Below, in pieces: positions 21,324 to 40,121 of a DNA stretch of 44,379 bases (the first letter of the stretch is position 1; every line of letters starts with the position of its first letter). Under the pieces are notes generated by a model that saw nothing but the letters and a program-made list of their open reading frames with translations, did not search any database and had not been told where the DNA came from. This stretch comes from Escherichia phage PEC9. Made by a program: the position numbers and the translations under genes. The DNA lies in the sequence record ON548431.1. The stretch is one strand, 5' to 3'.

Positions 21324-21931
21324 CAACGTTTAAATTGTACGGCGTCTTGGGGCGTCGTTTTGGTAGAGTGCATAAGCTGGACTGCTTCACACCGGGCGAA
21401 GGCATCACCGGCTTGTGTGTGAAGTTGCCAGGGTTACAAGACTTTTTAATGTCCGCCCACCTGGACAACATGATGTTCAAGGTGCGCAAAGGCAACCACA
21501 CAATGACCGGTTATGATGAGCTTGGCGAGTTCCACGGCAACCGCGTCGTTACCATCGCGCCGGTTATGACTGGCGCAAAAAGAGGATTGGGCCAATTGCT
21601 GGCGGGTGTTGCGATCGTAGTGGCGTCGTTCTATACGGGCGGACTTGCTACTGCCGCTTTCGGGGCTTCGGCTGCAACCGCTGCCGCTATTGGTACAGCG
21701 ACGTTTTCGTTCGGCATGTCGATGGCGCTGGGTGGCGTTATGCAATTGCTGTCGCCTCAACCGAAAGGATTGCAGACACGGCAGGACGTGGATAACAAGG
21801 CTTCGTATGCGTTCGGTGGCCCGGTAAACACGACCGCGCAAGGTACGGCGCTTGGTGTATTATGGGGCGAGCGTGAGATCGGCGGCGCTATTATTTCAGC
21901 AGGAATCGTAACCGAGGATTTGAACGAATGA
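21314..21931 (+). CDS. Tail assembly protein (lambda I-like)
   Basis: 205 aa; hydrophobic Gly/Ala-rich C-terminal half; between K-like and J-like genes. Confidence 0.55.
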   Translation: MAMTTFKLYGVLGRRFGRVHKLDCFTPGEGITGLCVKLPGLQDFLMSAHLDNMMFKVRKGNHTMTGYDELGEFHGNRVVTIAPVMTGAKRGLGQLLAGVAIVVASFYTGGLATAAFGASAATAAAIGTATFSFGMSMALGGVMQLLSPQPKGLQTRQDVDNKASYAFGGPVNTTAQGTALGVLWGEREIGGAIISAGIVTEDLNE

Positions 21932-24900
21932 CGATTATTTACGACGTCACGGGCCATAAAGGCGGCGGTGGCAAACAGCACACCCCACAGGAGACACCCG
22001 ATAGCCTGCATTCTCTGGCTAAAATCCGCATCTTGCTTGCGCTGGGAGAAGGTGAGTTCGAAGGTATTCCAGACCCTAACGAATTACGGCGGCGCGTATA
22101 TCTGGAAGGAACACCGATCCAGAATGCAGACCTGTCTGAAAACTTCCCTGGGGCGCGTGTGGAGTTCCGCCCCGGAACACAGCACCAGGATGTGATCCAC
22201 GGATTTTCAGCGGTGGAAAGTGAGCAATCTGTCGGCGTAAAACTGGAAAACGGCACGCCGTGGGTGCGCCAGGTTAACGACACCAGTCTGGACGCCGTTC
22301 GCATTCGCATCGGCATTCCGGCCCTGTACACTAACGAAGATAACGGCGACCTGGTGGGCGGGCGCATCGACTATAAGATCGTTGTATATACGGATAACGC
22401 CGACCCGCGTGAGTTCAGATTCGCCGCCGTTGGTAAAACAATGTCGCTATATGAGCGCGACCACCGCATCGAATTACCGCCGAACGTGAATGCCGGCTGG
22501 CGAGTGGAGGTGCACCGCATAACGGCAGACTCCACATCGGCGAAAGTTGTTAATGATATCCGGGTGCAATCCATCACTGAGATTATCGACGCCCGCCTGC
22601 GTTACCCGCTAACCGCGCTGTTGTTTGTGGAGTTCGACGCTAAAGCGTTCCAGAACATCCCGCGCGTGTCCATTAAGTGCAAAGGTCGCAAAGTTCTAAT
22701 ACCGAACAACTACGACCCGATCAATCATACCTATTCCGGTGACTGGGACGGCACGTTTAAACGCGCATGGACGGATAACCCTGCGTGGCACTGGTACGAT
22801 ATTTGTATTACTGAGCGCTTCGGCCTCGGTCGGCGTATCAAACCGCAAATGCTAAACCGATACGCGCTCTACCAGATTGCGCAGCGCTGCGATCAGTTGG
22901 TCAGCGACGGCAACGGTGGTCGAGAAATCCGCTTTAAGAATGATATGTACATTCAGTCACAGACGGATGCCTGGACCGTGCTTAAGGATTTAGCCGCCAT
23001 CTTCGCCGGAATGACCTGGTGGGGCAACCAGATGTTGAATATCGTCAGTGACCAACCGGTCGCAGCAGTGTCGCACACTATCACCAACGCCTCGGTAATT
23101 GATGGTCGATTCGACTACGCATCTGGCAGCCAGAAAACTCGCTATTCCACATTTGCGGTCGCATACGGCAACCCGAAGAACCACTATGAAGATGCCATCG
23201 CCACGGGGCAGCGCGTCGAACTGGTACGCCGCCATAAGATTAACCGTCTTGATATTACGGCGATCGGCTGTACGCGCGAATCTGAAGCGCAACGCCGCGG
23301 GCATTGGGCGCTAATATCCAACCAGCTTGACCAGCAAGTTAGTTTTAAGGTAGGCATGGAAGGGTTATTCTTTATTCCTGGTAGCGTAGTCGCGATCGCG
23401 GATACAAACATTTCTGGCGGATTCGAGACTCGCGGCGGTCGCCTGTTGTCGGACCCCGGAACGCGTACCGTGCTGAACACGGACAGCGAAATCACATTCC
23501 GCCCTGGCGACAAGTTCCTGGTGCGCACCGATAGCGGTAACGTGGAGACTCGCGAGATCGCCAGCGTCAACGGCAACAAGGTCACGCTAAAAACCGCACT
23601 GGATGCCGACCCGATTCCAGACCAACCGTTTTGCGTTGATGGCGATGATATCCAGTTGCAAAAATTCCGCATCACCGATCTGGAGTATGACGACTCTACG
23701 AGCACTTTCTCGGTGCGCGGGATTGAATACAACGATAGCAAGTATGATGCCGTTGATAATGGCGCTCGCCTTGATCCTGGTATCTTCACGCAAGTGCCAG
23801 ACGGTGTAATGAAGGGGCCGGAATCCGTTACCATCACCCCGTCGCAGATCTCATCGCAAGGCCAGCTAATCACCAACGTGGATATTGTTTTCCCGCCGGT
23901 GAAGGATGCCGTTGTTTATGAAATCCAGTGGCGGCGTACAAGCCTGCAGAATATGGCGGTCCAGTGGGGTAACGACTGGGTGAATATCCCACGCACGGCG
24001 TCGAATGGCGCGCACATCCCTAACGTGTTCTCCGGCAACTACCAGGCGCGCGTCCGTGCGATCGGTATGGGCGAGATTTCATCCCCGTGGGTGTCGTCCG
24101 CCATCACGCCGGTCGAAGGTCGCCTCGGTGGGCTTAACGCACCAATCATCACCAACGCGATTTCGGGTCTGCACCAGATTCTATGGAAGTGGAACCACAA
24201 CAACGCCGCTACGGATATCTCATACACCGAGCTTGAAGTGCGCAAGACGGGTGAGACGGAATGGAAATTCCTGTCCAACGTCCCATACCCAGGGTCGGAT
24301 TATGCGCAAACGTCGCTGGAGTTCGGGATTTACCAGCAGTTGCGCGCCCGTGTAGCGGATAAAATCGGCAACCTGTCGGACTGGTCCGCCCCGTTCGAAG
24401 GCCAGGTTAGTGACAAAGTTGACGAGTACATGAAGGGGCTTGAAGACGAGTTCTTGACTTCCGAGGATGGTAAACACTTCCAAGAAGCCATTAATACGAT
24501 TCCGCAAGGCATTTACGAATCAATGCTCACGGACGCCCAGCAGATGTTCAACGCCCGCGCCGAGTACAAAGGGATTTACGCAGAAATCAAGGTCGCATAT
24601 AACGTGGCGGCAGACGCCAACAAGGCTGTCGCGCAACTGGAAACGTTGATCGGCACTCGCCTTGACGATGCGGAAGCGGCAATCCACACGTTGCAGACAG
24701 CGCAAAGCACGCACGAGCAAGCATTCGCCCAGTATCAGCAAACTGTTGCCGCTAAGTTCGGGGAACAGGACGCCGCCATCCAGCAGGTACAAACGGCAAC
24801 GGCAGACGTAGCGGGCGTGCTGGCGGAGTACAAGACCCAGGTGGCGGCACAGTTCGGTAAGCAGTCTGCAGCTATCGAGCAGAAGATGACGTCTTCGTTT

Positions 24901-25374
24901 AATCATGCTGGGGGCAGCGCCACATATAGCCTTAAGGCTGGCGTGACGTATAACGGGGCTTACTACGATGCCGGTATGCAGCTTTCCGTCGTTGCGGAAG
25001 GCGGCGCGGTTAAATCACGCATCGCGTTCAAGGCGGACCAGTTCTACATCATGCACCCGTCGAATGGGTCGCTTTCGTCCGCGTTTATCGTTGACGGCGG
25101 ACAGGTGTACATTGACACGGCGCGCATCAAGAATGCGTCCATCAACTTCGCACAGATCACGGACACGCTGCAATCCAATAACTGGAATCCGGGTAGCAGC
25201 GGCTGGCGTATCGCGAAGGATGGCGGGGCGGAGTTCAACAACGTAACGGTCCGAGGCAACTTGTTCGCGACTACGGGTAATTTCGGATTCTCCGGCGGGT
25301 CCGTTACGATCGACGCAACGGGCGTTAACGTGCCATTACCTGGCGGTGGTAGGGTGAAAGTGGGGACGTGGTAA
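21928..25374 (+). CDS. Central tail fibre / host specificity protein (lambda J-like)
   Basis: 1148 aa; size and position after I-like gene; conserved-looking N-terminal region, divergent C-terminal region. Confidence 0.75.
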   Translation: MTIIYDVTGHKGGGGKQHTPQETPDSLHSLAKIRILLALGEGEFEGIPDPNELRRRVYLEGTPIQNADLSENFPGARVEFRPGTQHQDVIHGFSAVESEQSVGVKLENGTPWVRQVNDTSLDAVRIRIGIPALYTNEDNGDLVGGRIDYKIVVYTDNADPREFRFAAVGKTMSLYERDHRIELPPNVNAGWRVEVHRITADSTSAKVVNDIRVQSITEIIDARLRYPLTALLFVEFDAKAFQNIPRVSIKCKGRKVLIPNNYDPINHTYSGDWDGTFKRAWTDNPAWHWYDICITERFGLGRRIKPQMLNRYALYQIAQRCDQLVSDGNGGREIRFKNDMYIQSQTDAWTVLKDLAAIFAGMTWWGNQMLNIVSDQPVAAVSHTITNASVIDGRFDYASGSQKTRYSTFAVAYGNPKNHYEDAIATGQRVELVRRHKINRLDITAIGCTRESEAQRRGHWALISNQLDQQVSFKVGMEGLFFIPGSVVAIADTNISGGFETRGGRLLSDPGTRTVLNTDSEITFRPGDKFLVRTDSGNVETREIASVNGNKVTLKTALDADPIPDQPFCVDGDDIQLQKFRITDLEYDDSTSTFSVRGIEYNDSKYDAVDNGARLDPGIFTQVPDGVMKGPESVTITPSQISSQGQLITNVDIVFPPVKDAVVYEIQWRRTSLQNMAVQWGNDWVNIPRTASNGAHIPNVFSGNYQARVRAIGMGEISSPWVSSAITPVEGRLGGLNAPIITNAISGLHQILWKWNHNNAATDISYTELEVRKTGETEWKFLSNVPYPGSDYAQTSLEFGIYQQLRARVADKIGNLSDWSAPFEGQVSDKVDEYMKGLEDEFLTSEDGKHFQEAINTIPQGIYESMLTDAQQMFNARAEYKGIYAEIKVAYNVAADANKAVAQLETLIGTRLDDAEAAIHTLQTAQSTHEQAFAQYQQTVAAKFGEQDAAIQQVQTATADVAGVLAEYKTQVAAQFGKQSAAIEQKMTSSFNHAGGSATYSLKAGVTYNGAYYDAGMQLSVVAEGGAVKSRIAFKADQFYIMHPSNGSLSSAFIVDGGQVYIDTARIKNASINFAQITDTLQSNNWNPGSSGWRIAKDGGAEFNNVTVRGNLFATTGNFGFSGGSVTIDATGVNVPLPGGGRVKVGTW

Positions 25375-25378
25375 ATGC

Positions 25379-25401
25379 GAAGGGGCCATCTGGCCCCTTT
25401 C
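25379..25401. terminator. Bidirectional terminator hairpin between convergent genes
   Basis: AGGGGCC-ATCT-GGCCCCT hairpin followed by TTTC; plus gene ends 25374, minus gene ends 25401. Confidence 0.5.
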
Positions 25402-26366
25402 TAATACATGTTAGGGATGACTAGTAACGGTGTGGGTACGGTTACATTACGATTAGGAATCTGGAATTGCTGCCGTGAGTAGTTACCGATCACGCGATTT
25501 CGTGCCGCGCTAACCACGTTTCCCGCCATGCGTATCCCGTTCATTCGCACGTGGTTATATCCGCTGTTGTTCTCAATGAGCGCGCCGGTATATGAAAGCT
25601 GTACTAGGCTGTTGCCGATATTCTGACCGCCAGTGCCGATATTAATTACGGAATTGAGGACGAACGGCTTGTTAACGGTAGAGAACGTGACCTGTCCCTG
25701 GTTGTTAGTCATGGTGATCCCGGCCCCCGGCGTGGGTGGTGTATTGTTGAATATTACCAGGTCCATGTCCACCGAAGCCGCCACATCGTCGATACCACCA
25801 TAGGACGCGTTGCGGACGATAATACTGCCACCATCGAAGCCTACTGATACGTTGCCGTCATCCCAGCGGGCGAACGGGACACCGCTAACTGGCAAGGCCA
25901 TACTCCCGTTGACGCGCACGCGCTTCGCGTATCGGCAGGTCATCAGCTTTGCCACGTTGGATATTGCGGTGAAGTCCGTTGAGTTAGCTACGAGCAGGCC
26001 CGCGTTGCGCGAACCAACCGGCAGCACTTCCATTATGACGCCCGCCCATTGTGGTAAACCAGAGTACGCGCCATACGCATCATCACCGCGCAGGGTGATT
26101 CCGCTATTACCGTTGCGAGTAACAGACGTGACGTAAAACGGATCGGGTATTACCAGGGTCTGGTCGAACACTTCAATCACCTCTACCGGGCGAGTGAGCG
26201 CGACGATGACCTGCGACCCCGCCGTAAGAGGGGTGTTAATGGTTAGCGTCTTGTTGGATTGCGCCCGCTGGTTAAAGCTGGTGCAGTATGACGGCGCGCG
26301 GAGTCCCGCGGTTATCTCCATGACAGGTCTACCGTCGTTGTAGTCTATTAATATTCCAGCGCCCAT
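25401..26366 (-). CDS. Beta-rich tail-associated protein, possible receptor-binding protein
   Basis: 321 aa from ATG 26366 (ORF track starts at GTG 26375); Gly/Asn/Ser/Thr/Val-rich; antisense to flanking tail genes and coupled to upstream lipoprotein gene. Confidence 0.4.
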   Translation of the reverse strand: MGAGILIDYNDGRPVMEITAGLRAPSYCTSFNQRAQSNKTLTINTPLTAGSQVIVALTRPVEVIEVFDQTLVIPDPFYVTSVTRNGNSGITLRGDDAYGAYSGLPQWAGVIMEVLPVGSRNAGLLVANSTDFTAISNVAKLMTCRYAKRVRVNGSMALPVSGVPFARWDDGNVSVGFDGGSIIVRNASYGGIDDVAASVDMDLVIFNNTPPTPGAGITMTNNQGQVTFSTVNKPFVLNSVINIGTGGQNIGNSLVQLSYTGALIENNSGYNHVRMNGIRMAGNVVSAARNRVIGNYSRQQFQIPNRNVTVPTPLLVIPNMY

Positions 26367-26368
26367 TA

Positions 26369-26590
26369 TTACCACTCCCGTGATTTAACTGAAACAGTGC
26401 CGGAAAAATTGCCGTCACTGTCGGCAGACAGACCAGTGAAGCGCATGTCCACATCCCCGGACGGGATTTTTCGCCCGTCAACGTAACGCAACATGCAGCT
26501 GCCGTACGCAACCGTAATGCAATCGCCGTTGTTGCGTTCTACGGCACAACCGGACAAAAGAACCGCACAAATCATAATTAAAGTTTTCAT
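26369..26590 (-). CDS. Small lipoprotein, candidate superinfection-exclusion protein
   Basis: 73 aa from ATG 26590; signal peptide with lipobox LLSGC; two further Cys in mature part. Confidence 0.5.
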   Translation of the reverse strand: MKTLIMICAVLLSGCAVERNNGDCITVAYGSCMLRYVDGRKIPSGDVDMRFTGLSADSDGNFSGTVSVKSREW

Positions 26591-26644
26591 GGTATCATCA
26601 CCTATATTTGGTCGAGTTTTAGTATTACACCGCTCGATCAAGAA

Positions 26645-26654
26645 TGCAACCAAT
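26645..26654. promoter_or_regulatory. Recurrent motif TGCAACCAAT upstream of tail fibre gene
   Basis: Exact 10-mer 17 bp upstream of ATG 26671, in a divergent intergenic region. Confidence 0.45.
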
Positions 26655-26670
26655 TTACGAGGATTTAGCT

Positions 26671-28503
26671 ATGGCAGCGGGTACACTATCCGTAACGAAT
26701 AACAGCAAGGCGGTTGTCGGGGTAGGCACGACGTTTACCGCGTTTAAAGCCGGAGACTTCTTATCGCTGGTAGTGGGGCAAGTACCCTACACTGTTGCGA
26801 TCGCGTCCGTAGAAAGCGACACCGCGATTACGCTTGTGCTGCCGTTCGACGGACCCACGGCAACTGGCCTCGCGTGGGATGGCGTTAAGCGCGATACCAT
26901 GTCGCTGGCAACGATGGGCGTAACAGTACAGGCGCAGAAAGCGTTGCGCTTGATGATCGCGGACGAAAACAACTGGCGCGCAATCTTCGGAGACGAGGAA
27001 GAAATCGCGGTAACGCTGCCGAACGGGCAAGTTATGCAGGGTATGTCGTGGGGCTATCTGTCGCAATTGCTGAAGGAAGTTGACCCCGTTGAAATGCGCA
27101 ACCTGCAACAACAAGCCGCGGCATCTGAAGCAGCAGCGCTGGTATCGCGTAATGAGGCCGAAGGCTTCAAGAACGATACCAATACCATCAAGACGCAGAC
27201 CAACCAGATTAAGGCAGATACGCAGGCTATCCGCGACGCCACCAATACCATCAAGACGCAGACCAACAAGATTAAGGCAGATACGCAGGCCATCAAAGAC
27301 CAGACGAACCAGATCAAGACTGACACCGGCGTTATGAGGGACCAGGCCAACGCTGCGAAGACTGACGCGCAAGCTGCCAGCGCAGCCGCGCAGGGATTCC
27401 GCGATCAGGCCGAGGAGTGGGCGCAAAGCGTTAACGCGGATAACCTGCTAACAAAATCCGGCAACCTGGCAGGGCTTGCGGATAAATCGGCGTCGTGGAA
27501 GAACCTTATGCCTGCGGGGCCGCTGCGAATTGGGGCGCACCCCGTTGCGGACCTGGATGCCGCGACCCGGAAATGGACGCTGGAGCGTTTTACCAAAGGC
27601 GTGGCGGAGTCGTCGTGGACTGTCAGGAAAACCGTCACCACCACACCACAGAACGGCACTGTCGTCCGTGGCGGTGAGGTGGAATCGAGATATTCCAACC
27701 CAACATCTACGCAGTTCGCCCGTCTGTACTCAAGCTCTGTATTTGGTTCTTCTAACGCGGCTGTTGTTGAGGCAGAGGGTTCTTCCAGGCACGCTTATAA
27801 ATTCTATGAGGATGGCACAGTTGACTTCCGACAGTCAGGGAAGACCAACCCATTCCGCATGTATACAAATATTGGAACATGGAATGGCATAACGGACGCC
27901 ACGGCATCCAACTTGACAACTAACGGAATGGACAGGGTGGCCATTTCGAGCGGCTCAGATACTCTGGTGCACGGATATTCTATCGGCGGCACCAAACCTA
28001 ATGGATATCCAACAAAGGTTGGATATCACATGTATATTCCAGGCAATAATGCATTTGGTATTGCTTGCATGGTAATCGGTGGGGATAACGGAAAATTTTG
28101 CCGTTACTTTTTTGACATTGATGGTCTAATATATGGTTCGACCGATTACGGGAACTTCAGTTATATGAAAAATGGCACTTCTGACTTACGTGTAAAACAC
28201 GGCATCGCCCATGTTGGAGTTGACAAATCATACTCTAATATTAAAGGGCTGGAATTTGTAGAGTTCATTTATGATAATGACGAACAAAATCGAGTTCGGC
28301 ATGGCGTGATTGCACAGCAAGCAGAGGTTGTTGAGCCTTTATATGTCAAGACGCGCAAATATGTTGGCAATAATCCAGGAGAGATTGTGGAGCAGAAGGA
28401 ACTGGACACTACGCCGATGCTTCTGGATACCATGCATGTTGTGCAGACGTTGATGCAGAAGATCGAGGCTATGGAGGCCGAGATCGCGGCGCTGAAGAAA
28501 TGA
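26671..28503 (+). CDS. Tail fibre with predicted C-terminal intramolecular chaperone domain
   Basis: 611 aa from ATG 26671 (GAGGA RBS); internal repeats TNTIKTQTNQIKADTQAI; C-terminal region ending ...EAMEAEIAALKK resembles autocleaving chaperone domains of phage fibres. Confidence 0.65.
   Translation: MAAGTLSVTNNSKAVVGVGTTFTAFKAGDFLSLVVGQVPYTVAIASVESDTAITLVLPFDGPTATGLAWDGVKRDTMSLATMGVTVQAQKALRLMIADENNWRAIFGDEEEIAVTLPNGQVMQGMSWGYLSQLLKEVDPVEMRNLQQQAAASEAAALVSRNEAEGFKNDTNTIKTQTNQIKADTQAIRDATNTIKTQTNKIKADTQAIKDQTNQIKTDTGVMRDQANAAKTDAQAASAAAQGFRDQAEEWAQSVNADNLLTKSGNLAGLADKSASWKNLMPAGPLRIGAHPVADLDAATRKWTLERFTKGVAESSWTVRKTVTTTPQNGTVVRGGEVESRYSNPTSTQFARLYSSSVFGSSNAAVVEAEGSSRHAYKFYEDGTVDFRQSGKTNPFRMYTNIGTWNGITDATASNLTTNGMDRVAISSGSDTLVHGYSIGGTKPNGYPTKVGYHMYIPGNNAFGIACMVIGGDNGKFCRYFFDIDGLIYGSTDYGNFSYMKNGTSDLRVKHGIAHVGVDKSYSNIKGLEFVEFIYDNDEQNRVRHGVIAQQAEVVEPLYVKTRKYVGNNPGEIVEQKELDTTPMLLDTMHVVQTLMQKIEAMEAEIAALKK
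27178..27303 (+). repeat. 63-bp tandem direct repeat (2 units plus partial third) inside tail fibre gene
   Basis: Unit 27178-27240 and unit 27241-27303 differ at a few positions; partial third unit follows. Confidence 0.7.
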
Positions 28504-28506
28504 ATC

Positions 28507-28532
28507 AGAGGGGCCATTCGGCCCCTCTTTTT
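28507..28532. terminator. Bidirectional terminator between tail fibre and minus-strand block
   Basis: AGAGGGGCC-ATTC-GGCCCCTCT hairpin followed by TTTTT; overlaps stop of minus gene at 28531. Confidence 0.55.
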
Positions 28533-29106
28533 AGTTTGAGTTTTCCCAGTCCATTTTGCGCCGCACAAGCGGGCTTTCGTAATATTCCTTACCTTCCACT
28601 TCCACTAAAGGCCAATCGTTCACGATCACGTATGGCTCTGCTATGTCCTCAATCACACCGTGCGCGCTATGCTGCCCGAACGACACACCGACCAGAATAA
28701 CCCCGGCAACTCGACGTGAAAGATACTCGCGAGCGCAACGGGCCTCAACCAGACCGCGACGGATGCCGCTGGTGGCTTTGACCTCATATGTCCAGACGGC
28801 ATCAATCATATGCTCTTTGTAGTCGGGACCGGATTTTACCTTGCGCTTGCCAACCATGATAATATCGCCGCGGTCGATAGTGTTAGCGCTAAACAGGCCG
28901 GTACGCATTAGCAAACCTTGCGGGATACAGCTACGCCCGCCCGCCTGCCCTTCGAGGTACATGCCCGCAAACATCTCGCCAAGCACACCGACAAGACGGC
29001 TTTGCTTGCACGCGTCAGACTTGTATCGCCACTGGTCAAACTCGATGCTTGCTATCATTGCCGCCAGGTGGAATTGTTTACCGGTTATTTCATATTCGCC
29101 GTACAT
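28531..29106 (-). CDS. Hypothetical protein, possible PD-(D/E)xK-type nuclease
   Basis: 191 aa; GAGGGG RBS; segment GPDYKEHMIDAVWTYEVK gives PD-x13-ExK spacing; weak evidence. Confidence 0.35.
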   Translation of the reverse strand: MYGEYEITGKQFHLAAMIASIEFDQWRYKSDACKQSRLVGVLGEMFAGMYLEGQAGGRSCIPQGLLMRTGLFSANTIDRGDIIMVGKRKVKSGPDYKEHMIDAVWTYEVKATSGIRRGLVEARCAREYLSRRVAGVILVGVSFGQHSAHGVIEDIAEPYVIVNDWPLVEVEGKEYYESPLVRRKMDWENSN

Positions 29107-29148
29107 TGTGAACCCCTCATTGATGCGGGCCGAAGCCCGCTATTAGAA

Positions 29149-29670
29149 TTATTTAAGTGCGCCAGTCACCAGTGTTTTTTCCATGTTACGGAAATCTTCC
29201 TGCGTCATGCAGATTTTCGATCCGTCTTCGCCCGTGAGCACGACCATAGGCTGGACGTCCTGGGCTACAACTCCAAAATTGGCGGCGTTAACCGTCTTGC
29301 CAACAGATGAAGAAGGATGCCACGTCCCCGCGACGTCGATGGGCCAACCTTTGAGGCTATCGTATTGCGCTGCCGTTGTATCGATCTGAATCTCGTCATG
29401 CACGGTCATGTAAGACTCGCCCAGCAGGGCGGCATACGCCACCAGATCCACGATGTTATCTTCCTGGTGTTTACGGTGCTGGCGCACCAGCTTCAGGCAG
29501 ATCAGGAAGGTCCAGGCTTCTTGCTCGGACAGGTCGCGCCCGGTAAGCGCGTTAAACACGGCAGCGATTTGTTTAGCGCTGCGTTCTTCTTTCGCGTTGT
29601 CATAGCCGTTTTCTTTCCCGCGCTGTTCCATAGTGGTGGCGGCGTTTTTGCAGTATTCGTATGCTTTCAC
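29149..29670 (-). CDS. Hypothetical protein (173 aa)
   Basis: GTG start at 29670 with AAGGG upstream, or internal ATG 29631; no motif recognised. Confidence 0.45.
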   Translation of the reverse strand: MKAYEYCKNAATTMEQRGKENGYDNAKEERSAKQIAAVFNALTGRDLSEQEAWTFLICLKLVRQHRKHQEDNIVDLVAYAALLGESYMTVHDEIQIDTTAAQYDSLKGWPIDVAGTWHPSSSVGKTVNAANFGVVAQDVQPMVVLTGEDGSKICMTQEDFRNMEKTLVTGALK

Positions 29671-29724
29671 AGTATTACCCTTTTTAGTGAGGGGGCTGTA
29701 TTGCCCCCGACACGTTTACTATAG

Positions 29725-29747
29725 TGCAACCAATCTATTGGTTGCAA
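29725..29747. promoter_or_regulatory. Perfect palindrome TGCAACCAAT-cta-ATTGGTTGCA
   Basis: Read directly; overlaps the stop codon of the minus-strand HAD gene and lies about 55 bp upstream of the next minus-strand start; adjacent GGGGGC-N6-GCCCCC hairpin at 29691-29708. Confidence 0.55.
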
Positions 29748-30205
29748 GTGAATTTTGCAACGTTTATCGCGTAAATTTTCGGGACCAAATCACCACACGC
29801 CCGACGAATTGCTGCGATGTTCTTCGGGCAGTCTTCAATGATGACCAGTTCCGACACGTCCGCATAACAGACCATTTTGAACACGGCGCACGCCTTAAAC
29901 TCTGGCGGCGGGGTGTCGTCCAGCATGTGGCGCATAAACAACCTGCCTACCGGGAAGACCTCCAATTGCTCGGCGGTGGTTTCCCAGCATTCTCGCTGCC
30001 GGTTGGTCAGATACGCGATCTCGAAGCCTTGCTCTTTATACATGCGCAGTAGCGGCAGCATATCCATGTTCAGGTCTTCGCGGACGTGCGCCTTGTGCCA
30101 CTTCGCCCAAAAGGTGGATTTAGTTTTTACACCCGGCACCAGGTCGGCACGCGCATCGCTTGAACCGTTAATAACGCCATCCAAATCGCAAATCAGTAAT
30201 TTCAT
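29735..30205 (-). CDS. HAD-superfamily hydrolase (nucleotidase/phosphatase-like)
   Basis: 156 aa; N-terminal DxDGV motif (LICDLDGV) typical of HAD phosphatases. Confidence 0.5.
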   Translation of the reverse strand: MKLLICDLDGVINGSSDARADLVPGVKTKSTFWAKWHKAHVREDLNMDMLPLLRMYKEQGFEIAYLTNRQRECWETTAEQLEVFPVGRLFMRHMLDDTPPPEFKACAVFKMVCYADVSELVIIEDCPKNIAAIRRACGDLVPKIYAINVAKFTCNQ

Positions 30206-30426
30206 TTTAAGCTCTCAATAAGGGTGTATCGGGCGCTGCGCGCGGTGAAGGAGTTACACACGAAATGGCAACGCGTGGTTATGACAAGCCAGCCGGTAAG
30301 ATCTAGGCCCAGAATATATTCAGGCCGCGACACGCGACGCACACGATCGCGGCGGGGGTCGATGCAGAAGTCTTTTTGCATTTGGTCTACTACCGCAGGG
30401 TCGCGGTCAACGATTAAGATATTCAA
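30202..30426 (-). CDS. Hypothetical protein (74 aa)
   Basis: TTG start with strong AAGGAG RBS 6 nt upstream; overlaps 3' end of upstream methyltransferase gene in another frame. Confidence 0.35.
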   Translation of the reverse strand: MNILIVDRDPAVVDQMQKDFCIDPRRDRVRRVSRPEYILGLDLTGWLVITTRCHFVCNSFTARSARYTLIESLK

Positions 30427-30892
30427 GGAGTTCTCCTTCGCTCATTATTTCAATTTGTGCGCTGCCGGTGGGCGGCGCTTCGTCAAAGATTATCAATTGC
30501 TGGCACTTGTTATTGCTCGGACCGACTTCACCGGTTACAGCATGTATGAATCGGATCCGCCAGTCCAGAAGAATTATCAGGTTTGCAGTCTTCCGGGCCA
30601 GCTTTGCCCACTTCGTCGACGTGTCCTGATTCAGCAGCATGACGGTCCGGCGTCCGTGCGCTGCACACTCGACCCACGGCAGCGGATCGGAATACGGCGG
30701 GTTGCACCACTTCCACCCTTTCAACTCTGACCAGTCCGCCTCAAGCGCGCTGTGCTCTGCCGTGAAGTAACGCGGTAGCAGGTGGTTGGCATCGCTCGCC
30801 GCCATGTCATAACGGAATCGGTACTTCCGGCGCAGCGGTTTAAATAAAGCTGGCGGCGTGCGCCAGCTATCTTTTTGCTCACTCTTCTGCAT
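30407..30892 (-). CDS. DNA N6-adenine methyltransferase (phage Dam-like)
   Basis: 161 aa; NPPY catalytic motif (WCNPPYSD); compact size typical of phage amino-methyltransferases. Confidence 0.65.
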   Translation of the reverse strand: MQKSEQKDSWRTPPALFKPLRRKYRFRYDMAASDANHLLPRYFTAEHSALEADWSELKGWKWCNPPYSDPLPWVECAAHGRRTVMLLNQDTSTKWAKLARKTANLIILLDWRIRFIHAVTGEVGPSNNKCQQLIIFDEAPPTGSAQIEIMSEGELLEYLNR

Positions 30893-31343
30893 GGTCGGTG
30901 TCTATCGCATACAGGGCGATTTTATCGCCGGTTTTGAGAATGCGTTGCACGCGCTTTGTCCCCTCGACACTAAGCGGACGCGCGTCCGGGTAGAAGCTGC
31001 CATTTGTAGGGTTGCGCCACGCCATAAGCACCAAATCTTTACGGTCAACCTTAGACTGGCGACCCTTCGGTCGCACGTACTCCTCGGCCCGTTTACAGTG
31101 CTCCCGCAACGCCTCAGCCGTGATGCGGTTTAGTGCAACGCTGGTGGTGTATCCGGTGCGCTGCATAATCCCCATCAATTCGAATAGCAGTCCGAAGCGC
31201 TCCGCTAGATCCTGGCGCACTTTCTTCTCTCCTTCATATAGCGCCTGGTTGGTGTCCGCCAACGCGTTCGCACGTTCGGCCTGTTCGCGGGCTTTAAGGC
31301 ATTGCGCAGCCCAGTAATCCTTTTCTTCTTGTAAAATTTTCAT
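30879..31343 (-). CDS. Hypothetical protein (154 aa)
   Basis: Minus-strand ORF in replication block; helical N-terminal half; no motif recognised. Confidence 0.45.
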   Translation of the reverse strand: MKILQEEKDYWAAQCLKAREQAERANALADTNQALYEGEKKVRQDLAERFGLLFELMGIMQRTGYTTSVALNRITAEALREHCKRAEEYVRPKGRQSKVDRKDLVLMAWRNPTNGSFYPDARPLSVEGTKRVQRILKTGDKIALYAIDTDHAEE

Positions 31344-31586
31344 CTATTTAAACTCCGTTGTGCGGATTTCCTTGCGTGGTATAAATTTGCCGTCTTTCTC
31401 GACCCAGCAAGTGCCACCGCGCCACTGGGTGTTACGACCTGTTAGTTCTGCGTAGACAATCCGGCATTCATATTTATCGAGGTTATACGTGCAGGAAATC
31501 GGCAGCAGGAGACAAAAGAATAAGAACAGCACCATACACACCCAAAAACGTAAATCCCCGTCGTCGTCAAAAAAGAATCGTTTCAT
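31344..31586 (-). CDS. Small membrane protein (80 aa)
   Basis: ATG 31586 with GAGGA RBS; one strong hydrophobic helix (FWVCMVLFLFFCLLLPI). Confidence 0.4.
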   Translation of the reverse strand: MKRFFFDDDGDLRFWVCMVLFLFFCLLLPISCTYNLDKYECRIVYAELTGRNTQWRGGTCWVEKDGKFIPRKEIRTTEFK

Positions 31587-31638
31587 GGTTAAATCCTCAT
31601 ATAAAAAAGGGCATCCAAACCGGACACCCTCAATATAA

Positions 31639-31665
31639 TGCAACCAATATGATTATGCAACCAAT
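31639..31665. promoter_or_regulatory. Two direct copies of TGCAACCAAT, 17 bp apart
   Basis: Read at 31639-31648 and 31656-31665, about 55 bp upstream of minus-strand start 31586. Confidence 0.5.
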
Positions 31666-31989
31666 TTACGCATAAAAGTTAGGGTCGCGTGCAACGTCTA
31701 CCAAATACAGATTGCTGATTCGGTTGCCGTAGTGGCCTGGCGTGCGCTGACGGCACACTACGGCATAGCCTGGAGGTATTGTATTGCCAGTCTCAATGAT
31801 CCACGCCACGCGTGCGCCAGACAGCGTCTTGCCGTTGTACTCGATACGAGTACCGCCATCGGCAGTGTTAAGGTTGCCAATCTTGCTACCGGTAGACTTC
31901 AGGCGGATGACGCCCGTTTTACTGTCGTAGGTGAATAGCTGATTGGTCATTGCTACCGAAAAATCGATGGCTTCGAATGTGGTATTCAT
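31666..31989 (-). CDS. Hypothetical protein, weak HNH-endonuclease-like C-terminal pattern
   Basis: 107 aa; segment GHYGNRISNLYLV loosely resembles HNH H-x-D-G-N...N-L motif; not confident. Confidence 0.3.
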   Translation of the reverse strand: MNTTFEAIDFSVAMTNQLFTYDSKTGVIRLKSTGSKIGNLNTADGGTRIEYNGKTLSGARVAWIIETGNTIPPGYAVVCRQRTPGHYGNRISNLYLVDVARDPNFYA

Positions 31990-32696
31990 TCTAAATTTTC
32001 CTCGTTAACTGCGATTGCGAAGCCGCGCGGGGTGCGCGACCTGATTAGTTTGGTGCGGGCCGATTTGCCTCCGAGGCGACTATACTGCTTCGAGTACCCT
32101 TTTTCAACGAAAACAGGTTTCTTCTCTGGCATACGGAAGCCGTTGCCGGTCCATAAGCAGGTCAGCTTCGGATATGAATCGCGGGCGTTGATGTATTCAG
32201 GGAATAACGGGTGTACGTCATCCTCTGGCAAATAGCCTCCATACTCCCACGGGTCAAACGAGTGGTCCGGCTTACGCCATTGAGTGGAGAGCACGCTGCG
32301 CGGATTCTCAATCATATACGGCACTTCGAAGAAATCACCCAGGTAAGCGGCGATCTTCGCGGTGCGCACCGCCTTAAGCTGGAAGGCAGGGTCGCGGGCG
32401 CGTTTGCGCGGGAACGCTGGCGCACCACTAACCGCCAGATCCGTACACGGCGGGAATGCATAGATGATATCCGGCGTGCCGAAATCACCATTCATCGCGC
32501 GGTCCACGAAGTCCAGATCGATAAACTCATTACGATATCGGATACCGCGCCCATAAATCCGGTAGTCCAGGTACGACCCGTGATCGGCTTCGGAGTAGTT
32601 GAAGCAATAACACTTATGCCCCATCTCGGCAGCACGCTCAATCATCAAGCCGCTGCCGTCGAATAATGACCAGATTGTCATTTTAGCAATAGTCAT
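31986..32696 (-). CDS. DNA cytosine-5 methyltransferase-like protein (compact)
   Basis: 236 aa; motif I-like LFDGSG, catalytic PPC (AFPPCTDLAVSGA), ENP resembling the ENV motif; short for a full C5 enzyme. Confidence 0.45.
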   Translation of the reverse strand: MTIAKMTIWSLFDGSGLMIERAAEMGHKCYCFNYSEADHGSYLDYRIYGRGIRYRNEFIDLDFVDRAMNGDFGTPDIIYAFPPCTDLAVSGAPAFPRKRARDPAFQLKAVRTAKIAAYLGDFFEVPYMIENPRSVLSTQWRKPDHSFDPWEYGGYLPEDDVHPLFPEYINARDSYPKLTCLWTGNGFRMPEKKPVFVEKGYSKQYSRLGGKSARTKLIRSRTPRGFAIAVNEENLE

Positions 32697-34117
32697 TTGC
32701 GCGCCTTTTTAGCTTTCATATATTCCATCAGGTCGTCCTGAATATCTCGCTTACTGTCTCGACGCTCTGCGACTAGTTCATCCAGTGTGCCGCGCGCCTG
32801 GATAATGTAGACGAATACCGGACGAGGGTGTCCGGCTTGCATCTGGCGAACTGGCCCGATACGCTCCACGATCTGCGCAAAGTGCTCATAGTTCCAGGTA
32901 TCTGAGAAGATAGCAAGGTGGTGCCCGCCATCCTGCAAGTTAAGGCCGTGACCCGCCGATGCCGGGTGCGCGAACATGATGGGGATCTCGCCCCTGTTCC
33001 ACGCTTCCATATCCTTATTGCCTTGCTTACCCTTACCCATCGCTACGCCGTGAGGGAATTTCTTCTTAAGACGTGCCAAGTCATGCTTGTACTGGTATGC
33101 TACGAGCAACGGTGCGCCGTTCAACTCTTCCACGATACTTTCCAGCGCGTCCAGTTTAGCGTCGTGAATTTTCACCCATTCGTCGGTGCGCTCGCCGTCT
33201 TCGTCGACCTTATACACGGCCCCGGAAGCAAGCTGAAGGCACTTAATGGTCTTCGAAGCAGCGTTCGCCGCCTCCACCGTTCCGCTTTCCAGTTCGGCAA
33301 ATAGCTCCGCTTCGAACTGGTCATAAATCTTGCGGGCTTTCTTCGGCAGGTCCACAACAACCGGCGTATAGATTGGCTTGTCACATCCGAAGTATTCAGC
33401 CGCGTCAACGGTAAGGGATACGTCAGACAGGCGTTGTTGGATCTCCTTCTCGGAGTTCTTTAGCGGGGCGTGCTGCATAGTGAAGCTGCCAGGCTTAACA
33501 GGCTTGCTAATAAACCAGCGATCCGTAAATGCCTTATAGCTACTGCCGAGGCGTTCGCCACCATCGACAAACCATGTCTGCCCCCATAGGTCTTTCAGCC
33601 CGTTCGGTGCGGGTGTGCCGGTCAGGTTAATCCAGCGCTTGACGTGCTTATGTGCGATCGCTGCCAGCGCACGGGCGCGCTTGCTCCCCTGCTTGCTACG
33701 ATAGCCTTTCAGCTTAGTCGATTCATCGGCAACAACGACCGTAAAGGGCCACGCATCGCCGTAATAGTCGACCAGCCACTCAACCACATCGTAGTTAACA
33801 CAAACCACGTTAGCGTCGCTCTCAAGCGCCGCAATACGGTCCTTCTCCGGCCCGGTGCCGTCTACGACCAGCAGGGATGAGAATCGCCATTTCTCCTGTT
33901 CCGGGGGCCAGGTGCCGGACGCAACGCGCAGCGGGGCCAGCACCAGTACGCGGTCCTCCTGGCTGGACAGGATACCAGTCTGGAACATTTTATTCAGCGC
34001 CCACATAGTCGCGCCGGTTTTACCCGACCCCATTGTCGCCCATATATTGCATCGCTTATGTTTTAGGATGAACGCGGTTATCAACTTCTGATATTCGCGA
34101 CGTCGGAATCGTGCCAT
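32693..34117 (-). CDS. Superfamily 2 helicase (SNF2/DEAD-like)
   Basis: 474 aa from ATG 34117 (ORF track start is upstream); Walker A GSGKTG, DExx-like VVADES box, further helicase-like segments. Confidence 0.75.
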   Translation of the reverse strand: MARFRRREYQKLITAFILKHKRCNIWATMGSGKTGATMWALNKMFQTGILSSQEDRVLVLAPLRVASGTWPPEQEKWRFSSLLVVDGTGPEKDRIAALESDANVVCVNYDVVEWLVDYYGDAWPFTVVVADESTKLKGYRSKQGSKRARALAAIAHKHVKRWINLTGTPAPNGLKDLWGQTWFVDGGERLGSSYKAFTDRWFISKPVKPGSFTMQHAPLKNSEKEIQQRLSDVSLTVDAAEYFGCDKPIYTPVVVDLPKKARKIYDQFEAELFAELESGTVEAANAASKTIKCLQLASGAVYKVDEDGERTDEWVKIHDAKLDALESIVEELNGAPLLVAYQYKHDLARLKKKFPHGVAMGKGKQGNKDMEAWNRGEIPIMFAHPASAGHGLNLQDGGHHLAIFSDTWNYEHFAQIVERIGPVRQMQAGHPRPVFVYIIQARGTLDELVAERRDSKRDIQDDLMEYMKAKKARK

Positions 34118-34121
34118 ATCT

Positions 34122-34346
34122 TTATTCCGCCTTTTTCCAGACTTCGGTTTCACTGTTCCAATTCCTCTTAGTGGCGTAATAGTATGGGTCGTGCTCAAGG
34201 TGCACACCGGTAGCGCGGAAGCTCTGGAACTTTTGCCAGCACACGGTCAGCGGCAGCGGTTTAGCCATTCCTGAAGTAAACCATACGCGATCGCCCGGTT
34301 TACATTCGCCCAGCTTGGTGAGTCGGTAATGTTCTTTCATCGTCAT
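34122..34346 (-). CDS. Hypothetical protein (74 aa)
   Basis: ATG 34346 with GGAGAT RBS; the longer 143-aa ORF upstream overlaps another ORF and is less likely. Confidence 0.35.
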   Translation of the reverse strand: MTMKEHYRLTKLGECKPGDRVWFTSGMAKPLPLTVCWQKFQSFRATGVHLEHDPYYYATKRNWNSETEVWKKAE

Positions 34347-34383
34347 ATCTCCCAAAAATGGCGGGACAAGCCCGCCATATTGA

Positions 34384-34557
34384 TTATTCTTGTTCTGCAC
34401 GATAGCGGCGCTGCCGTTCGCGCTCTTTCTTATTGCGGCAAGACTTGCACTCGGCCCGATGACCGTCTGGACTTCGCGCAGTCTTGCCGGTGTACTTGTG
34501 GAACTGGGATAGCGGCTTGATGCATCCGCAATTACTACAACGTTTTTCTTCAATCAT
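34384..34557 (-). CDS. Small zinc-ribbon-like protein (57 aa)
   Basis: ATG 34557 with GAGGA RBS; CSNCGC ... ECKSC cysteine pairs; basic C-terminus. Confidence 0.35.
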   Translation of the reverse strand: MIEEKRCSNCGCIKPLSQFHKYTGKTARSPDGHRAECKSCRNKKERERQRRYRAEQE

Positions 34558-34597
34558 TTCTAAAATCCTCGATAGTGCCAACCTGCACACTATACCG

Positions 34598-34876
34598 CTA
34601 CGCGACCAATTCAGCAACCAATAAATCGCAGTCGGATATGTTGTCGATAACGCGAACGTCAGCACCGCGGCGGGCCATTCGCTCATGTTCACGTACCTGG
34701 TGCGGCTTCGGTTTTCCTCCGGGGCGCTTCACTTCGACGAACACTATTTTGCCGTTGATGATAATAATCAGGTCGGGCGCACCTGCGCGCCCCTCCCATG
34801 CCAGTTTTCGGCAGAATCCGCCAACATCTTTCACCCGTCTCATCAGGTGACTTTGTATCTTGCCCTCTGGTGTCAT
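34598..34876 (-). CDS. VRR-NUC-type nuclease
   Basis: 92 aa from ATG 34876; segment GAPDLIIIINGKIVFVEVKRPGGKP matches the PD...E-x-K core of VRR-NUC domains; directly downstream of polymerase. Confidence 0.55.
   Translation of the reverse strand: MTPEGKIQSHLMRRVKDVGGFCRKLAWEGRAGAPDLIIIINGKIVFVEVKRPGGKPKPHQVREHERMARRGADVRVIDNISDCDLLVAELVA
34614..34622. promoter_or_regulatory. Motif core GCAACCAAT
   Basis: 9-mer at 34614-34622, about 60 bp upstream of minus-strand start 34557. Confidence 0.35.
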
Positions 34877-37167
34877 TATTTCCTGTACCTGTACATAATG
34901 TCGCCTTCCGCGGCAAGCGGGAAGCCTTTCGCCCAAACAGGCAGGTCGCACATCAGCGCGCACAACTCCTCGGTTGTGTAGTCGTCAGTATCCGGCACTT
35001 CGGTTATCAGTTCATCGTGTACGGACAGTACGATCTCATATCCCGCAGCTTCAACGCCAGGCATGGACCATGCGAGGATATCGCGACACAGCGCCTGCAC
35101 GATGTTTTCCGTGAGTTTGCCGCCGTAGGTGTACTGGAAGCCCCACTGGCGGGTCGTCTGATTCTCGCCCTGATATTTAATGCGGGTGCTGGTGCGTTTC
35201 TTGCCAGTATCTTCGTCGATCTCGGTCGTCACTGACAGCGCAATGCCTGGATAACTCATGATGCGCCCCGACGGCAACTCAATTTTCAACCACCACCCCG
35301 CGGCGTTCGGATCGTCGCGCTCCTCGTCGAAGGTAGGGTCGTGCTTCGCCTTCGTGCGGACTATCTTGAGCGCTTTCTTACCATCCGGGCGAACGTTCGC
35401 GCCAGCCCAGTACGCTTTGCCCGGATTGCGGATTGCGCAAAGCACCGCGTCTTCTAGTTCGGCCCAAAATGCCACCGTCTTCGGGTGCGACTCGCGCCAC
35501 ATACGTTTGATCGCATCACACGTCAGCCATACGTTTTTAGGCAGTATGTAAGTTGGGCGCTCGTCCTTCTTGCCAGGCTTCGGCGGGCGCTTCGCTTCGT
35601 TGATCCGGGCGTACTCATAACCCCGTTTCGCCGCCGCCCAAATGTGACCGGGGAATGTTCCCTTCATCACTTCAGCCATCGCGTAAAGGTCGAGGCCCAG
35701 GTTTTTAGCGAACTGCAAGAACGCAGCCACGCCGCCGCCATAGCCAAGGCCCAATTCGCACGCCTTACCGATCTGGCGTAAGTCTTTGCGGTTGGCTTTA
35801 ATGTATTCCGGGTCAAGGCCGAACATCTTACCGGCAGTCTCACAATAAATATCTCGATCGGCCTTAAACACCATGAGCGCTGTTTTCTCGCCAGCGATCC
35901 AGGCAAGTCCACGCCCTTCCACGTTGGAGTAGTCCGCTACGACAAACTTCTTACCCTTCGCCGGAATAATGCACCCACGAACGGTCGAGGCGGTTAGCTT
36001 CGATATGTCATACGCCCAGTGTGCGGTCCCACGTAACAGGGAATTGATGCCGTTGGTGAGCATGTGCGACCGCACCCAAAACGCGACGTCGCTCTCGCCT
36101 TCACGGCGTTTAATCTTCCCTTCGTGGTCGTCGCTATACTCGCCACGCGCCAGGTTTTGAGGCTGAAAGCCTTTACCGGCCCAGCGTAGCGTGCGCTTTG
36201 CGCCGCCATACTGAAGACACCCACGGCGGCGACCATCGGCGGACAGGCCATTTACGAGCGGATTGTACTTAGTCGATGCCGTTGATGACGCACCGAGGCG
36301 CATCTCGATAAGCACTTTGCCTTCGTCGGGGAAGTCTGGATCTTCCAGCAGGTCGTTAAGCGTGGATTTCTGCGCGTTGTGGATTGTGAACGCAGGCGCG
36401 AGGTCGCGCAGCGCAGGCAGGAAGTCATTGCCGGTCAGCTTACCGCCGAAGCGCTCCCAGGCTTCTTCCTTCAATTCTTCTTTATGCGCCTGCACCGCTT
36501 TGATCGCGGCGCGCGCCAGGTCAACGTCAACATAGAAGCCGCGGTCGTTAATCAACTGGTCAATAAGCAGGATTTCGTCTTCCTTCGGCGTGTTACCCCA
36601 GTCTGGTATGCGCCAATAGACTTCCCTCATCGCGATGATATCCAGCGCGGCATAGCGCAGAAATTTGGCCCATTCTTCAGGGTGAGTCTCGCGAGTGTAG
36701 CGGCGGATTTTGTAAGTCTTAGGGGTCGGCTTACAGAAGCGTTTGATCAGCGCCTTGCCCGCCTTATCCTTCGCGTGCTCTGCGTCAACGCCAAGCACCT
36801 GGCACTGCATATCGAGACTACCCGGCAACGCGTGTCGAAAGGCCATAATCATGGTGTCTTCGATCTGGCACACTGGCAGGTCAATACCCCACTTCTCGCG
36901 AATAACCAGGCGGTCAAACAAGAGGCCGTTAGCCATCACGATTTTTGCTTTCTTGCGGGATACCCGGCGGAGCGCCTTGCGCAGTTCACGCGGCATTGTG
37001 GGGGACTCGGTGCAATCCCACGTTTGCACGCGGCCTTCGTCGATGGCGTATGTGCAAATCATAATCTCGGTAGTTGGGTGTTCCGCGTAGGCGTACGCAC
37101 CAACTTTCTTCAGGTCTACCCCGCTAAATGTCTCGGTGTCGAGAAACAGGCGTTCGAAGTCTTTCAT
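34876..37167 (-). CDS. DNA polymerase I (family A) with 3'-5' exonuclease domain
   Basis: 763 aa; N-terminal exonuclease motif LDTETF; polymerase motifs DYSNVEGR, K...LGLGYGGG and VHDEL. Confidence 0.9.
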   Translation of the reverse strand: MKDFERLFLDTETFSGVDLKKVGAYAYAEHPTTEIMICTYAIDEGRVQTWDCTESPTMPRELRKALRRVSRKKAKIVMANGLLFDRLVIREKWGIDLPVCQIEDTMIMAFRHALPGSLDMQCQVLGVDAEHAKDKAGKALIKRFCKPTPKTYKIRRYTRETHPEEWAKFLRYAALDIIAMREVYWRIPDWGNTPKEDEILLIDQLINDRGFYVDVDLARAAIKAVQAHKEELKEEAWERFGGKLTGNDFLPALRDLAPAFTIHNAQKSTLNDLLEDPDFPDEGKVLIEMRLGASSTASTKYNPLVNGLSADGRRRGCLQYGGAKRTLRWAGKGFQPQNLARGEYSDDHEGKIKRREGESDVAFWVRSHMLTNGINSLLRGTAHWAYDISKLTASTVRGCIIPAKGKKFVVADYSNVEGRGLAWIAGEKTALMVFKADRDIYCETAGKMFGLDPEYIKANRKDLRQIGKACELGLGYGGGVAAFLQFAKNLGLDLYAMAEVMKGTFPGHIWAAAKRGYEYARINEAKRPPKPGKKDERPTYILPKNVWLTCDAIKRMWRESHPKTVAFWAELEDAVLCAIRNPGKAYWAGANVRPDGKKALKIVRTKAKHDPTFDEERDDPNAAGWWLKIELPSGRIMSYPGIALSVTTEIDEDTGKKRTSTRIKYQGENQTTRQWGFQYTYGGKLTENIVQALCRDILAWSMPGVEAAGYEIVLSVHDELITEVPDTDDYTTEELCALMCDLPVWAKGFPLAAEGDIMYRYRK

Positions 37168-37340
37168 TGCTTAATCCTCACTACGGCGTCGGCGCTGCCG
37201 ATCATGGAGAAGATACCATCGGAAAGGGTAATCTCCTCGCCGTTGTTGCGAATCTCGGCAACTGTGAAATATTCGCCCAGCATTTTGGACCATACTTGCA
37301 TTCCGACTTTTACTTCGCTGGCTTTAATACGCATTTTCAT
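37164..37340 (-). CDS. Small protein (58 aa) translationally coupled to DNA polymerase
   Basis: Codons stepped by hand: ATG 37340 to TGA 37164-37166, which overlaps the polymerase ATG (ATGA); below ORF-track cut-off. Confidence 0.35.
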   Translation of the reverse strand: MKMRIKASEVKVGMQVWSKMLGEYFTVAEIRNNGEEITLSDGIFSMIGSADAVVRIKQ

Positions 37341-37345
37341 TGTCC

Positions 37346-37374
37346 TATTAAAAAGCCCGCATTAAGCGGGCTTG
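37346..37374 (-). terminator. Rho-independent terminator (minus strand) after SSB-like gene
   Basis: Minus-strand reading gives AAGCCCGC-TTAAT-GCGGGCTT followed by TTTTTAATA. Confidence 0.5.
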
Positions 37375-37391
37375 AATAGTGGGCTTTGCCC

Positions 37392-38177: not shown

Positions 38178-38232
38178 TTTCCAATTCCTCATTTTAACAT
38201 GTATCGGGGCTATTGTGAGCCACCCCGTTCGG

Positions 38233-38257
38233 CTTGGTTGCTAATCTACTTGGTTGC
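38233..38257. promoter_or_regulatory. Two direct copies of CTTGGTTGC (reverse complement GCAACCAAG)
   Basis: Read at 38233-38241 and 38249-38257 between two minus-strand genes. Confidence 0.4.
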
Positions 38258-38267
38258 GCCTAAGCGG

Positions 38268-39933: not shown

Positions 39934-40121
39934 TATTCCACCCTTGAAAACTGAGCTATATAATAATCGTGTTTAACATTTGCCTTCTTCGCTGCTTCGT
40001 TCATGGTTGAAGCAAGTTCGCTGGCTTGCGTCCAGCAGCTAACCCAGTTCTGATTCATAACGATTTCGGGTTGCTCATCGCCGGTAATACGGCAGCGAAA
40101 TAAAACAAAGAATGTAGCCAT
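39933..40121 (-). CDS. Hypothetical protein (62 aa)
   Basis: ATG 40121 with GGGAGA RBS, immediately after stop of upstream gene. Confidence 0.4.
   Translation of the reverse strand: MATFFVLFRCRITGDEQPEIVMNQNWVSCWTQASELASTMNEAAKKANVKHDYYIAQFSRVE

Follow-up and report, generated by a model that had tools for sequence, protein, structure and literature searches.

An antisense gene pair beside the J-like gene of Escherichia phage PEC9 as a probable LptD-type host-recognition cassette

Gene order and transcription signals

The window analysed here, the whole stretch of 44,379 nucleotides, is a complete Dhillonvirus genome, which matches Escherichia phage PEC14 at 99.9-100% identity and many other phages of the genus at about 90-95%. 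Between the J-like gene and the lateral tail fibre gene lie two adjoining genes on the opposite strand, which code for a small lipoprotein and for a 321-residue protein that is probably a receptor-binding protein (RBP) (Table 1). The pair, its coordinates and its place between these two genes had been given in a preliminary description of this DNA and are all confirmed, with both minus-strand frames present in the list of open reading frames (ORFs) exactly where they had been reported. Both are genuine genes and not chance frames, with E-values of 4e-21 for the lipoprotein against PF24052 and of 2.4e-120 for the RBP against PF20051.

Table 1. Genes and candidate signals at the locus, in order of position in the window
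Feature	Position	Strand	Details
J-like central tail fibre / tail-tip gene	21928..25374	+	1148 aa; PF24801, PF13550, PF09327, phrog_31 'central tail fiber J'
GC-rich hairpin	25380..25399	.	8-bp stem, 4-nt loop; between the convergent J and RBP stops
Probable LptD-type receptor-binding protein (RBP) gene, DUF6453	25401..26366	-	321 aa, 34 kDa; PF20051
Predicted superinfection-exclusion lipoprotein gene	26369..26590	-	73-aa precursor; PF24052, phrog_4281, Rtp45 match
Candidate sigma-70 promoter for the cassette	26621..26649	-	TTGCAT, 17-nt spacer, TG-t-AATACT; ~30 nt upstream of the lipoprotein ATG
Lateral tail fibre gene	26671..28503	+	phrog_1980, E 7.5e-121; PF13884 Peptidase_S74

The two genes of the pair are closely spaced. 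The RBP ATG lies 2 nt past the TAA of the lipoprotein gene and is preceded by GGGAG 8 nt upstream, and the lipoprotein ATG follows 7 nt after a Shine-Dalgarno sequence, AGGTGA (26598..26603, minus strand), whose placement favours the 73-residue start over the TTG start of a 94-residue form that appears in the ORF list and is annotated in some relatives. At the other end of the pair, the stops of the RBP gene and the J-like gene converge across a gap of 26 nt, and the same convergent arrangement is found in the phages Oekolampad, StarDew and Rtp. Homologs were found by tblastn in 321 phage records for the lipoprotein and in 345 for the RBP, and in PEC14, bov11C2, 101114BS4, AHS24 and Rtp the two matches lie on one strand, 5 nt apart. 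An antisense position is the conserved norm for this cassette and not an oddity.

The start of the lateral fibre gene bears on where the cassette might be transcribed from. Its true start is most likely at 26671 (MAAGTLSV...), following the annotation of StarDew and Oekolampad, and not at 26644, where the mechanically called ORF begins. The fibre gene and the lipoprotein gene are consequently separated by a divergent intergenic region of 80 nt, and the candidate cassette promoter is intergenic and does not fall within the fibre gene. The promoter-like motif, TTGCAT-17-TGtAATACT, is conserved in 8 of 9 aligned relatives and scores below the threshold of the consensus promoter scan; we regard it as a plausible candidate. 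The scan itself returned no convincing promoter for the cassette, its only nearby minus-strand match (26598-26571) overlapping the coding start.

The preliminary description had also proposed that convergent terminators bound the unit, which turns out to be only half right: there is a hairpin at the 3' end, whereas the 5' end is formed by the divergent intergenic region and has no terminator. The hairpin between the J-like and RBP stops, AAGGGGCC-ATCT-GGCCCCTT, has a folding energy of -17.3 kcal/mol (z -2.8) on one strand and of -15.8 kcal/mol (z -3.1) on the other. Its stem GGGGCC/GGCCCC is invariant in 9 relatives, with loops that vary, and locus L008 shows one compensatory change in the pair flanking the stem. 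The structure is a probable bidirectional terminator or RNA-end stabiliser, which the consensus terminator scan did not call because its T tract is weak; the scan found 6 terminator-like sites against 5.1 expected from shuffled sequences, a number no higher than chance would give. Within the lipoprotein gene, a terminator-like site at 26426-26410 has a stem of just 5 bp and was treated as chance. A strong bidirectional terminator hairpin is present further along, at 28507-28528, between the stop of the fibre gene and a convergent ORF of 191 residues (28531-29106; phrog_10558, of unknown function). It has a 9-bp stem, a folding energy of -19.8 kcal/mol (z about -4.5) and a T run on the plus strand, and its core, GGGGCC-N4-GGCCCC, is the same as that of the J/RBP hairpin.

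The receptor-binding protein, the lipoprotein and their neighbours

The J-like protein is 96% identical to bas18_0024 of Oekolampad and is presumed to be the docking platform for the RBP. On the other side of the pair, the lateral fibre protein carries a C-terminal intramolecular chaperone domain (Peptidase_S74, PF13884, residues 513-565). Within its gene, a 63-nt tandem repeat at 27178-27320 (2.3 copies, 83% matches) encodes a recurring TNTIKTQTNQIKADTQAI(R/K)D segment of the predicted coiled-coil fibre shaft.

The 321-residue protein had been described as rich in Gly, Asn, Ser and Thr, and these four residues do account for 34.6% of it (V 11.2%, G 10.3%, N 9.7%). It belongs to the family PF20051 (DUF6453), scoring 401.7 bits against a cut-off of 25, with residues 4-297 aligned to positions 1-290 of the 291-position profile. 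The earlier suggestion that it is a receptor-binding protein is supported by its 93% identity, over 321/321 aligned residues (E 6e-198), to the LptDE-bound RBP of Oekolampad, bas18_0025, whose chain bears the name 'Tail fiber protein' in the PDB entries 9RPT, 9RPW and 9RQI. It also shares 32.9% identity with Rtp44 at 100% coverage. One study assigned proteins to the LptD-binding RBPs when their identity to an experimentally validated member was above 30% at about full coverage (10.64898/2026.04.02.716166), and the protein encoded here exceeds that identity with both the Oekolampad RBP and Rtp44. From its identity to the solved chain the protein would be expected to be beta-rich; the RBP family of that chain has been described as consisting of two beta-sandwiches (PMC13035648). 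No signal peptide was found in the RBP and no transmembrane segment either, since its highest 19-residue Kyte-Doolittle average is only 1.22.

Conservation is distributed unevenly along the RBP. Residues 1-20 form the best-conserved stretch among 83 homologs, while 20 of the 22 differences from the Oekolampad RBP fall within residues 215-309, and relatives that are more than 75% identical (77-97% to the window RBP) also show most of their variation in the C-terminal third. A conserved N-terminus combined with a variable region at 215-309 would suit a protein that is attached by the former and contacts its receptor with the latter, and in published modelling the conserved residues map to an N-terminal 'base', whereas the LptD-binding 'tip' carries the variable loops (PMC13035648). 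Gln299, which in the Oekolampad RBP hydrogen-bonds Ser350 of LptD and is the sole contact residue named in the accessible part of the structural report (PMC12685063), is conserved in the window RBP. Attachment of the RBP to the distal end of the J-like fibre has the status of a proposal in the literature. In Citrobacter phage HCF1 (29341-29442), only residues 1-34 of the RBP find a match, with 82% identity, which suggests that a portable N-terminal adaptor segment may be common to RBPs with different receptor-binding bodies.

The lipoprotein assignment made in the preliminary description can be read directly from the residues. The precursor starts with MKTLIMICAVLLSGC... and has Lys2, a hydrophobic core (11-residue Kyte-Doolittle average 2.69), the lipobox L-S-G-C15 and Ala at position +2; the mature protein comprises 59 residues (6.4 kDa). 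In E. coli, the Lol sorting rule holds that lipoproteins without Asp at +2 are localised to the outer membrane. As the protein has Ala and not Asp at this position, and hence no inner-membrane retention signal, sorting to the outer membrane is expected. The lipoprotein scores 75.2 bits against PF24052 'Phage_lipoprotein' (cut-off 27), matches phrog_4281 with an E-value of 2.6e-32 and is 95% identical to bas18_0026 of Oekolampad, from which it differs by 4 substitutions, all in residues 39-56. A search of the PDB sequences matched it to Rtp45 of phage Rtp (9RPS chain D; E 1e-7), with an identity of about 33-38%, and its Cys24 and Cys32 align with the disulfide Cys30-Cys38 of Rtp45. In an alignment of five sequences spanning Dhillonvirus, Rtp and phiEco32, the lipobox Cys, both disulfide cysteines, G22, P43, G45, D48, R50, G53, E72 and W73 are invariant.

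The preliminary description had further raised the idea that the lipoprotein blocks the phage's own receptor. This is supported by the Rtp45 homology and by the near-identity to bas18_0026, which the authors of the structures named the Oekolampad superinfection-exclusion (SE) lipoprotein (PMC12685063). For the Dhillonvirus-type lipoprotein the exclusion role rests on homology, because these authors could not express the Oekolampad-type protein; the lipoprotein whose LptDE complex was solved is Rtp45 (PMC12685063). The accessible portion of the literature on the LptD-type cassette reports neither an exclusion phenotype nor LptDE binding for the Dhillonvirus-type lipoprotein.

Proposed role in host recognition and superinfection exclusion

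It is very probable that the gene pair is the LptD-type host-recognition cassette of small siphoviruses (Dhillonvirus, Drexlerviridae, Queuovirinae). This locus of LptD-type RBP and SE genes is already known, having been described genomically in 2021 and explained structurally in 2025. The cassette lies directly downstream of gpJ, where the literature maps receptor specificity, and the allelic families found at this locus match the terminal receptor, which may be FhuA, BtuB, YncD or LptD (PMC8594841). We hypothesize that the 321-residue DUF6453 protein acts as the terminal RBP, that it is attached to the virion through its N-terminus and that its far end inserts into the extracellular lumen of the LptDE lipopolysaccharide translocon in its open state, which would lead to irreversible adsorption. 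Binding of the RBP to LptDE, binding of Rtp45 to LptDE and the LptD dependence of Oekolampad were all shown on near-identical or homologous proteins (PMC12685063); for Oekolampad the evidence comprises cryo-EM, binding in vitro and lptD mutants that are resistant. The Oekolampad RBP is located deep in the extracellular lumen of open LptDE with an interface of about 1,700 A^2, and the LptD point mutations Y671N and D352Y each abolish RBP binding and infection (PMC12685063). Oekolampad is also blocked by the lptD loop mutations delta(Y658-Y678)::H and delta(L394-V396)::Y.

The 73-residue product, in turn, would be exported, lipidated at Cys15 and sorted to the inner leaflet of the outer membrane. 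As Rtp45 does, it may then bind the periplasmic side of LptDE and force extracellular loop 4 outward, which would keep the RBP from binding. In the solved complex, Rtp45 occupies the periplasmic side of LptDE and is held between LptE and LptM (PDB 9RPS; PMC12685063), and a hairpin of the protein rises up the LptDE lumen and shifts extracellular loop 4 by up to 20 A, with the result that the RBP cannot bind (PMC12685063). In the accessible text, exclusion was deduced from the structure and not from a plating phenotype (PMC12685063). Blocked LptDE would protect infected cells from superinfection and would spare the progeny from loss on lysis debris. The two genes would be transcribed together as an antisense unit that begins with the lipoprotein gene and probably has a promoter of its own.

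The locus closely follows that of Oekolampad (Bas18), which belongs to the same genus and has the cassette at the same locus, with an unchanged gene order and products of equal length (321 and 73 aa). The RBPs are 93% identical, the lipoproteins 95% and the J-like proteins 96%, and the hairpin and the promoter-like motif are common to both phages; the lateral fibre gene codes for 606 residues in Oekolampad and for 610 here when counted from the 26671 start. Rtp, which is placed in another family (Drexlerviridae), encodes Rtp44 and Rtp45 in the same two Pfam families, PF20051 and PF24052. Its genes are also arranged as in the window, with rtp45 followed by a co-oriented rtp44 and both convergent on the J homolog rtp43, and Rtp45 keeps the lipobox and the disulfide cysteines. 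However, identity to Rtp is low, with about 33% between the RBPs and 33-38% between the lipoproteins, and the rtp genes overlap by 1 nt, in contrast to the 2-nt gap seen here.

A similar logic, in which a tip RBP is paired with an adjacent lipoprotein gene whose product disables the receptor, is found in T5 (pb5 (oad) and Llp) and in T1, phi80 and N15 (Cor). In these phages, however, the receptor is the TonB-dependent transporter FhuA, and the proteins are unrelated in sequence to those of the cassette. Llp disables FhuA by binding its periplasmic face and works through long-range allostery, whereas Rtp45 displaces a loop physically. GpJ of lambda, which recognises LamB, and the TolC-type J extensions share the homologous J-like hub, with specificity encoded by the 3' end of gpJ or directly behind it, but the receptor-binding domain is in those cases part of J, while in the present phage the opposite strand encodes it as a polypeptide of its own. 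Since the exclusion gene would be translated first on the RBP transcript, exclusion could be tied to late RBP synthesis and so serve to guard the progeny against lysis debris, unlike the early Llp of T5, and the allele pair could at the same time be a specificity variant, in which the 20 clustered RBP substitutions and the 4 in the hairpin region of the lipoprotein reflect co-adaptation to escape mutants or to another allele of the LptD loops; taken jointly, we consider these two ideas speculative and rather unlikely to hold.

Existing annotation invites two other readings of the pair, in both of which LptD would have no part. The PHROG family 'Cor superinfection exclusion protein' (phrog_1119) matches the lipoprotein weakly (E 7e-4) and some of its homologs are annotated 'Cor' in GenBank, so that the protein might be a Cor/Llp-type blocker of FhuA or of another TonB-dependent transporter, which the phage would then use in place of LptD. 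We consider this highly improbable, given that the phrog_1119 match is confined to residues 1-30, which constitute the signal peptide, whereas the strong matches are to PF24052, phrog_4281 and the LptDE-bound Rtp45, and the partner RBP is nearly identical to an LptDE-binding protein. FhuA-, BtuB- and YncD-linked loci carry unrelated protein families in the literature (PMC8594841), and Llp gave no match to the lipoprotein in the PDB sequence search at E<=1. A Cor identity was therefore rejected, the mature lipoprotein showing no similarity to Cor, and the likeness is one of functional analogy. The labels on the 321-residue family, on the other hand, would fit a moron or accessory cassette (a membrane protein, or a defence or toxin system) that was inserted antisense and has nothing to do with adsorption: PHROGs lists the family as 'moron, auxiliary metabolic gene and host takeover; membrane protein', RefSeq relatives are likewise called 'membrane protein', and the cassette runs opposite to the tail operon. 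The PHROGs label does not agree with the structural data, nor with the absence of a transmembrane segment from the RBP, and neither protein of the pair gave a match in PADLOC (E<=0.01) or NCBIfam. Cryo-EM places the 93%-identical protein at the extracellular side of LptDE, and Oekolampad needs LptD for infection; in prophage-like relatives, moreover, the DUF6453 gene shares its strand with J and the fibre gene and is aligned with them like a structural gene, and the GC content of the cassette (0.537) is close to that of the genome (0.544). An accessory role unrelated to adsorption hence appears extremely doubtful.

A milder alternative accepts the LptD-type family and supposes that its specificity has shifted, the C-terminal substitutions having adjusted the allele to a different host range or a variant LptD, with co-adaptation of the lipoprotein. 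The differences from Oekolampad are indeed clustered, in residues 215-309 of the RBP and 39-56 of the lipoprotein, and single LptD point mutations suffice to abolish binding; as the RBP cluster includes the region of the LptD-contacting Gln299, fine specificity could differ from that of Oekolampad. Against this stand the overall identity of 93-95%, the conservation of Gln299 itself and the isolation of PEC14 on E. coli. The relatives with more than 75% identity vary most in the same third of the RBP, so that the pattern looks like ordinary allelic drift, and we give a shifted specificity a small chance, well above that of the two readings without LptD.

With the pair read as an LptD-type cassette, the sequence alone allows the terminal receptor of the window phage to be called LptD, and the labels 'hypothetical protein', 'membrane protein', 'moron' and 'Cor' that databases attach to these genes in relatives can be corrected. 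Because the outer-membrane protein LptD is essential and conserved, phages that target it are attractive for phage steering and engineering; LptD-targeting phages are also contaminants of FhuA-deficient production strains.

Distribution of the two families and other features of the genome

The two families do not always occur together. In 74 IMG/VR loci (L009-L082), a DUF6453 protein is encoded that is 50-56% identical to the window RBP, and tblastn with the window lipoprotein found no lipoprotein homolog within 2.5 kb. In the two of these loci that were inspected, L014 and L036, the DUF6453 gene is on the J strand and starts within about 10 nt of the J stop (with an overlap in L036), and it is followed by a lateral fibre gene on the same strand. 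The 74 loci resemble lambdoid prophages: L036 has dinI/umuD-like ORFs downstream, and the Salmonella phages SPN3UB and Oslo match at 54-55%. The inverted cassette with its exclusion gene may therefore be specific to virulent small siphoviruses.

The lipoprotein family also occurs apart from the RBP. phiEco32 (NC_010324, 66050-66331), NJ01, AnnaHegner (Bas87) and other Kuravirus/Gordonclarkvirinae podoviruses encode a lipoprotein of the PF24052/Rtp45 family (124 bits). In the phiEco32 type, the gene is part of a small early-type ORF cluster beside a tRNA-Arg, with no DUF6453 gene nearby, and going by family membership these podoviruses could act on LptDE as well. Enterobacter phage F20 has homologs of both the RBP (about 31%) and the lipoprotein (about 40%), which are not adjacent and lie roughly 10 kb apart, and Klebsiella siphoviruses of about 50 kb likewise have homologs of both.

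A few observations concern the genome as a whole. No tRNAs were found in the window. The deposited record of PEC14 (OP046317 / NC_073051) is 37,268 bp long, compared with 44,379 bp for the window, and the best matches listed for positions 25001-44379 are other Dhillonvirus phages at about 90-92% and not PEC14; the PEC14 record therefore appears to be without part of the replication-side half. Further short tandem repeats (periods 9, 54 and 21 nt) occupy 37420-37612 and 40774-40835, on the right-hand side of the genome.
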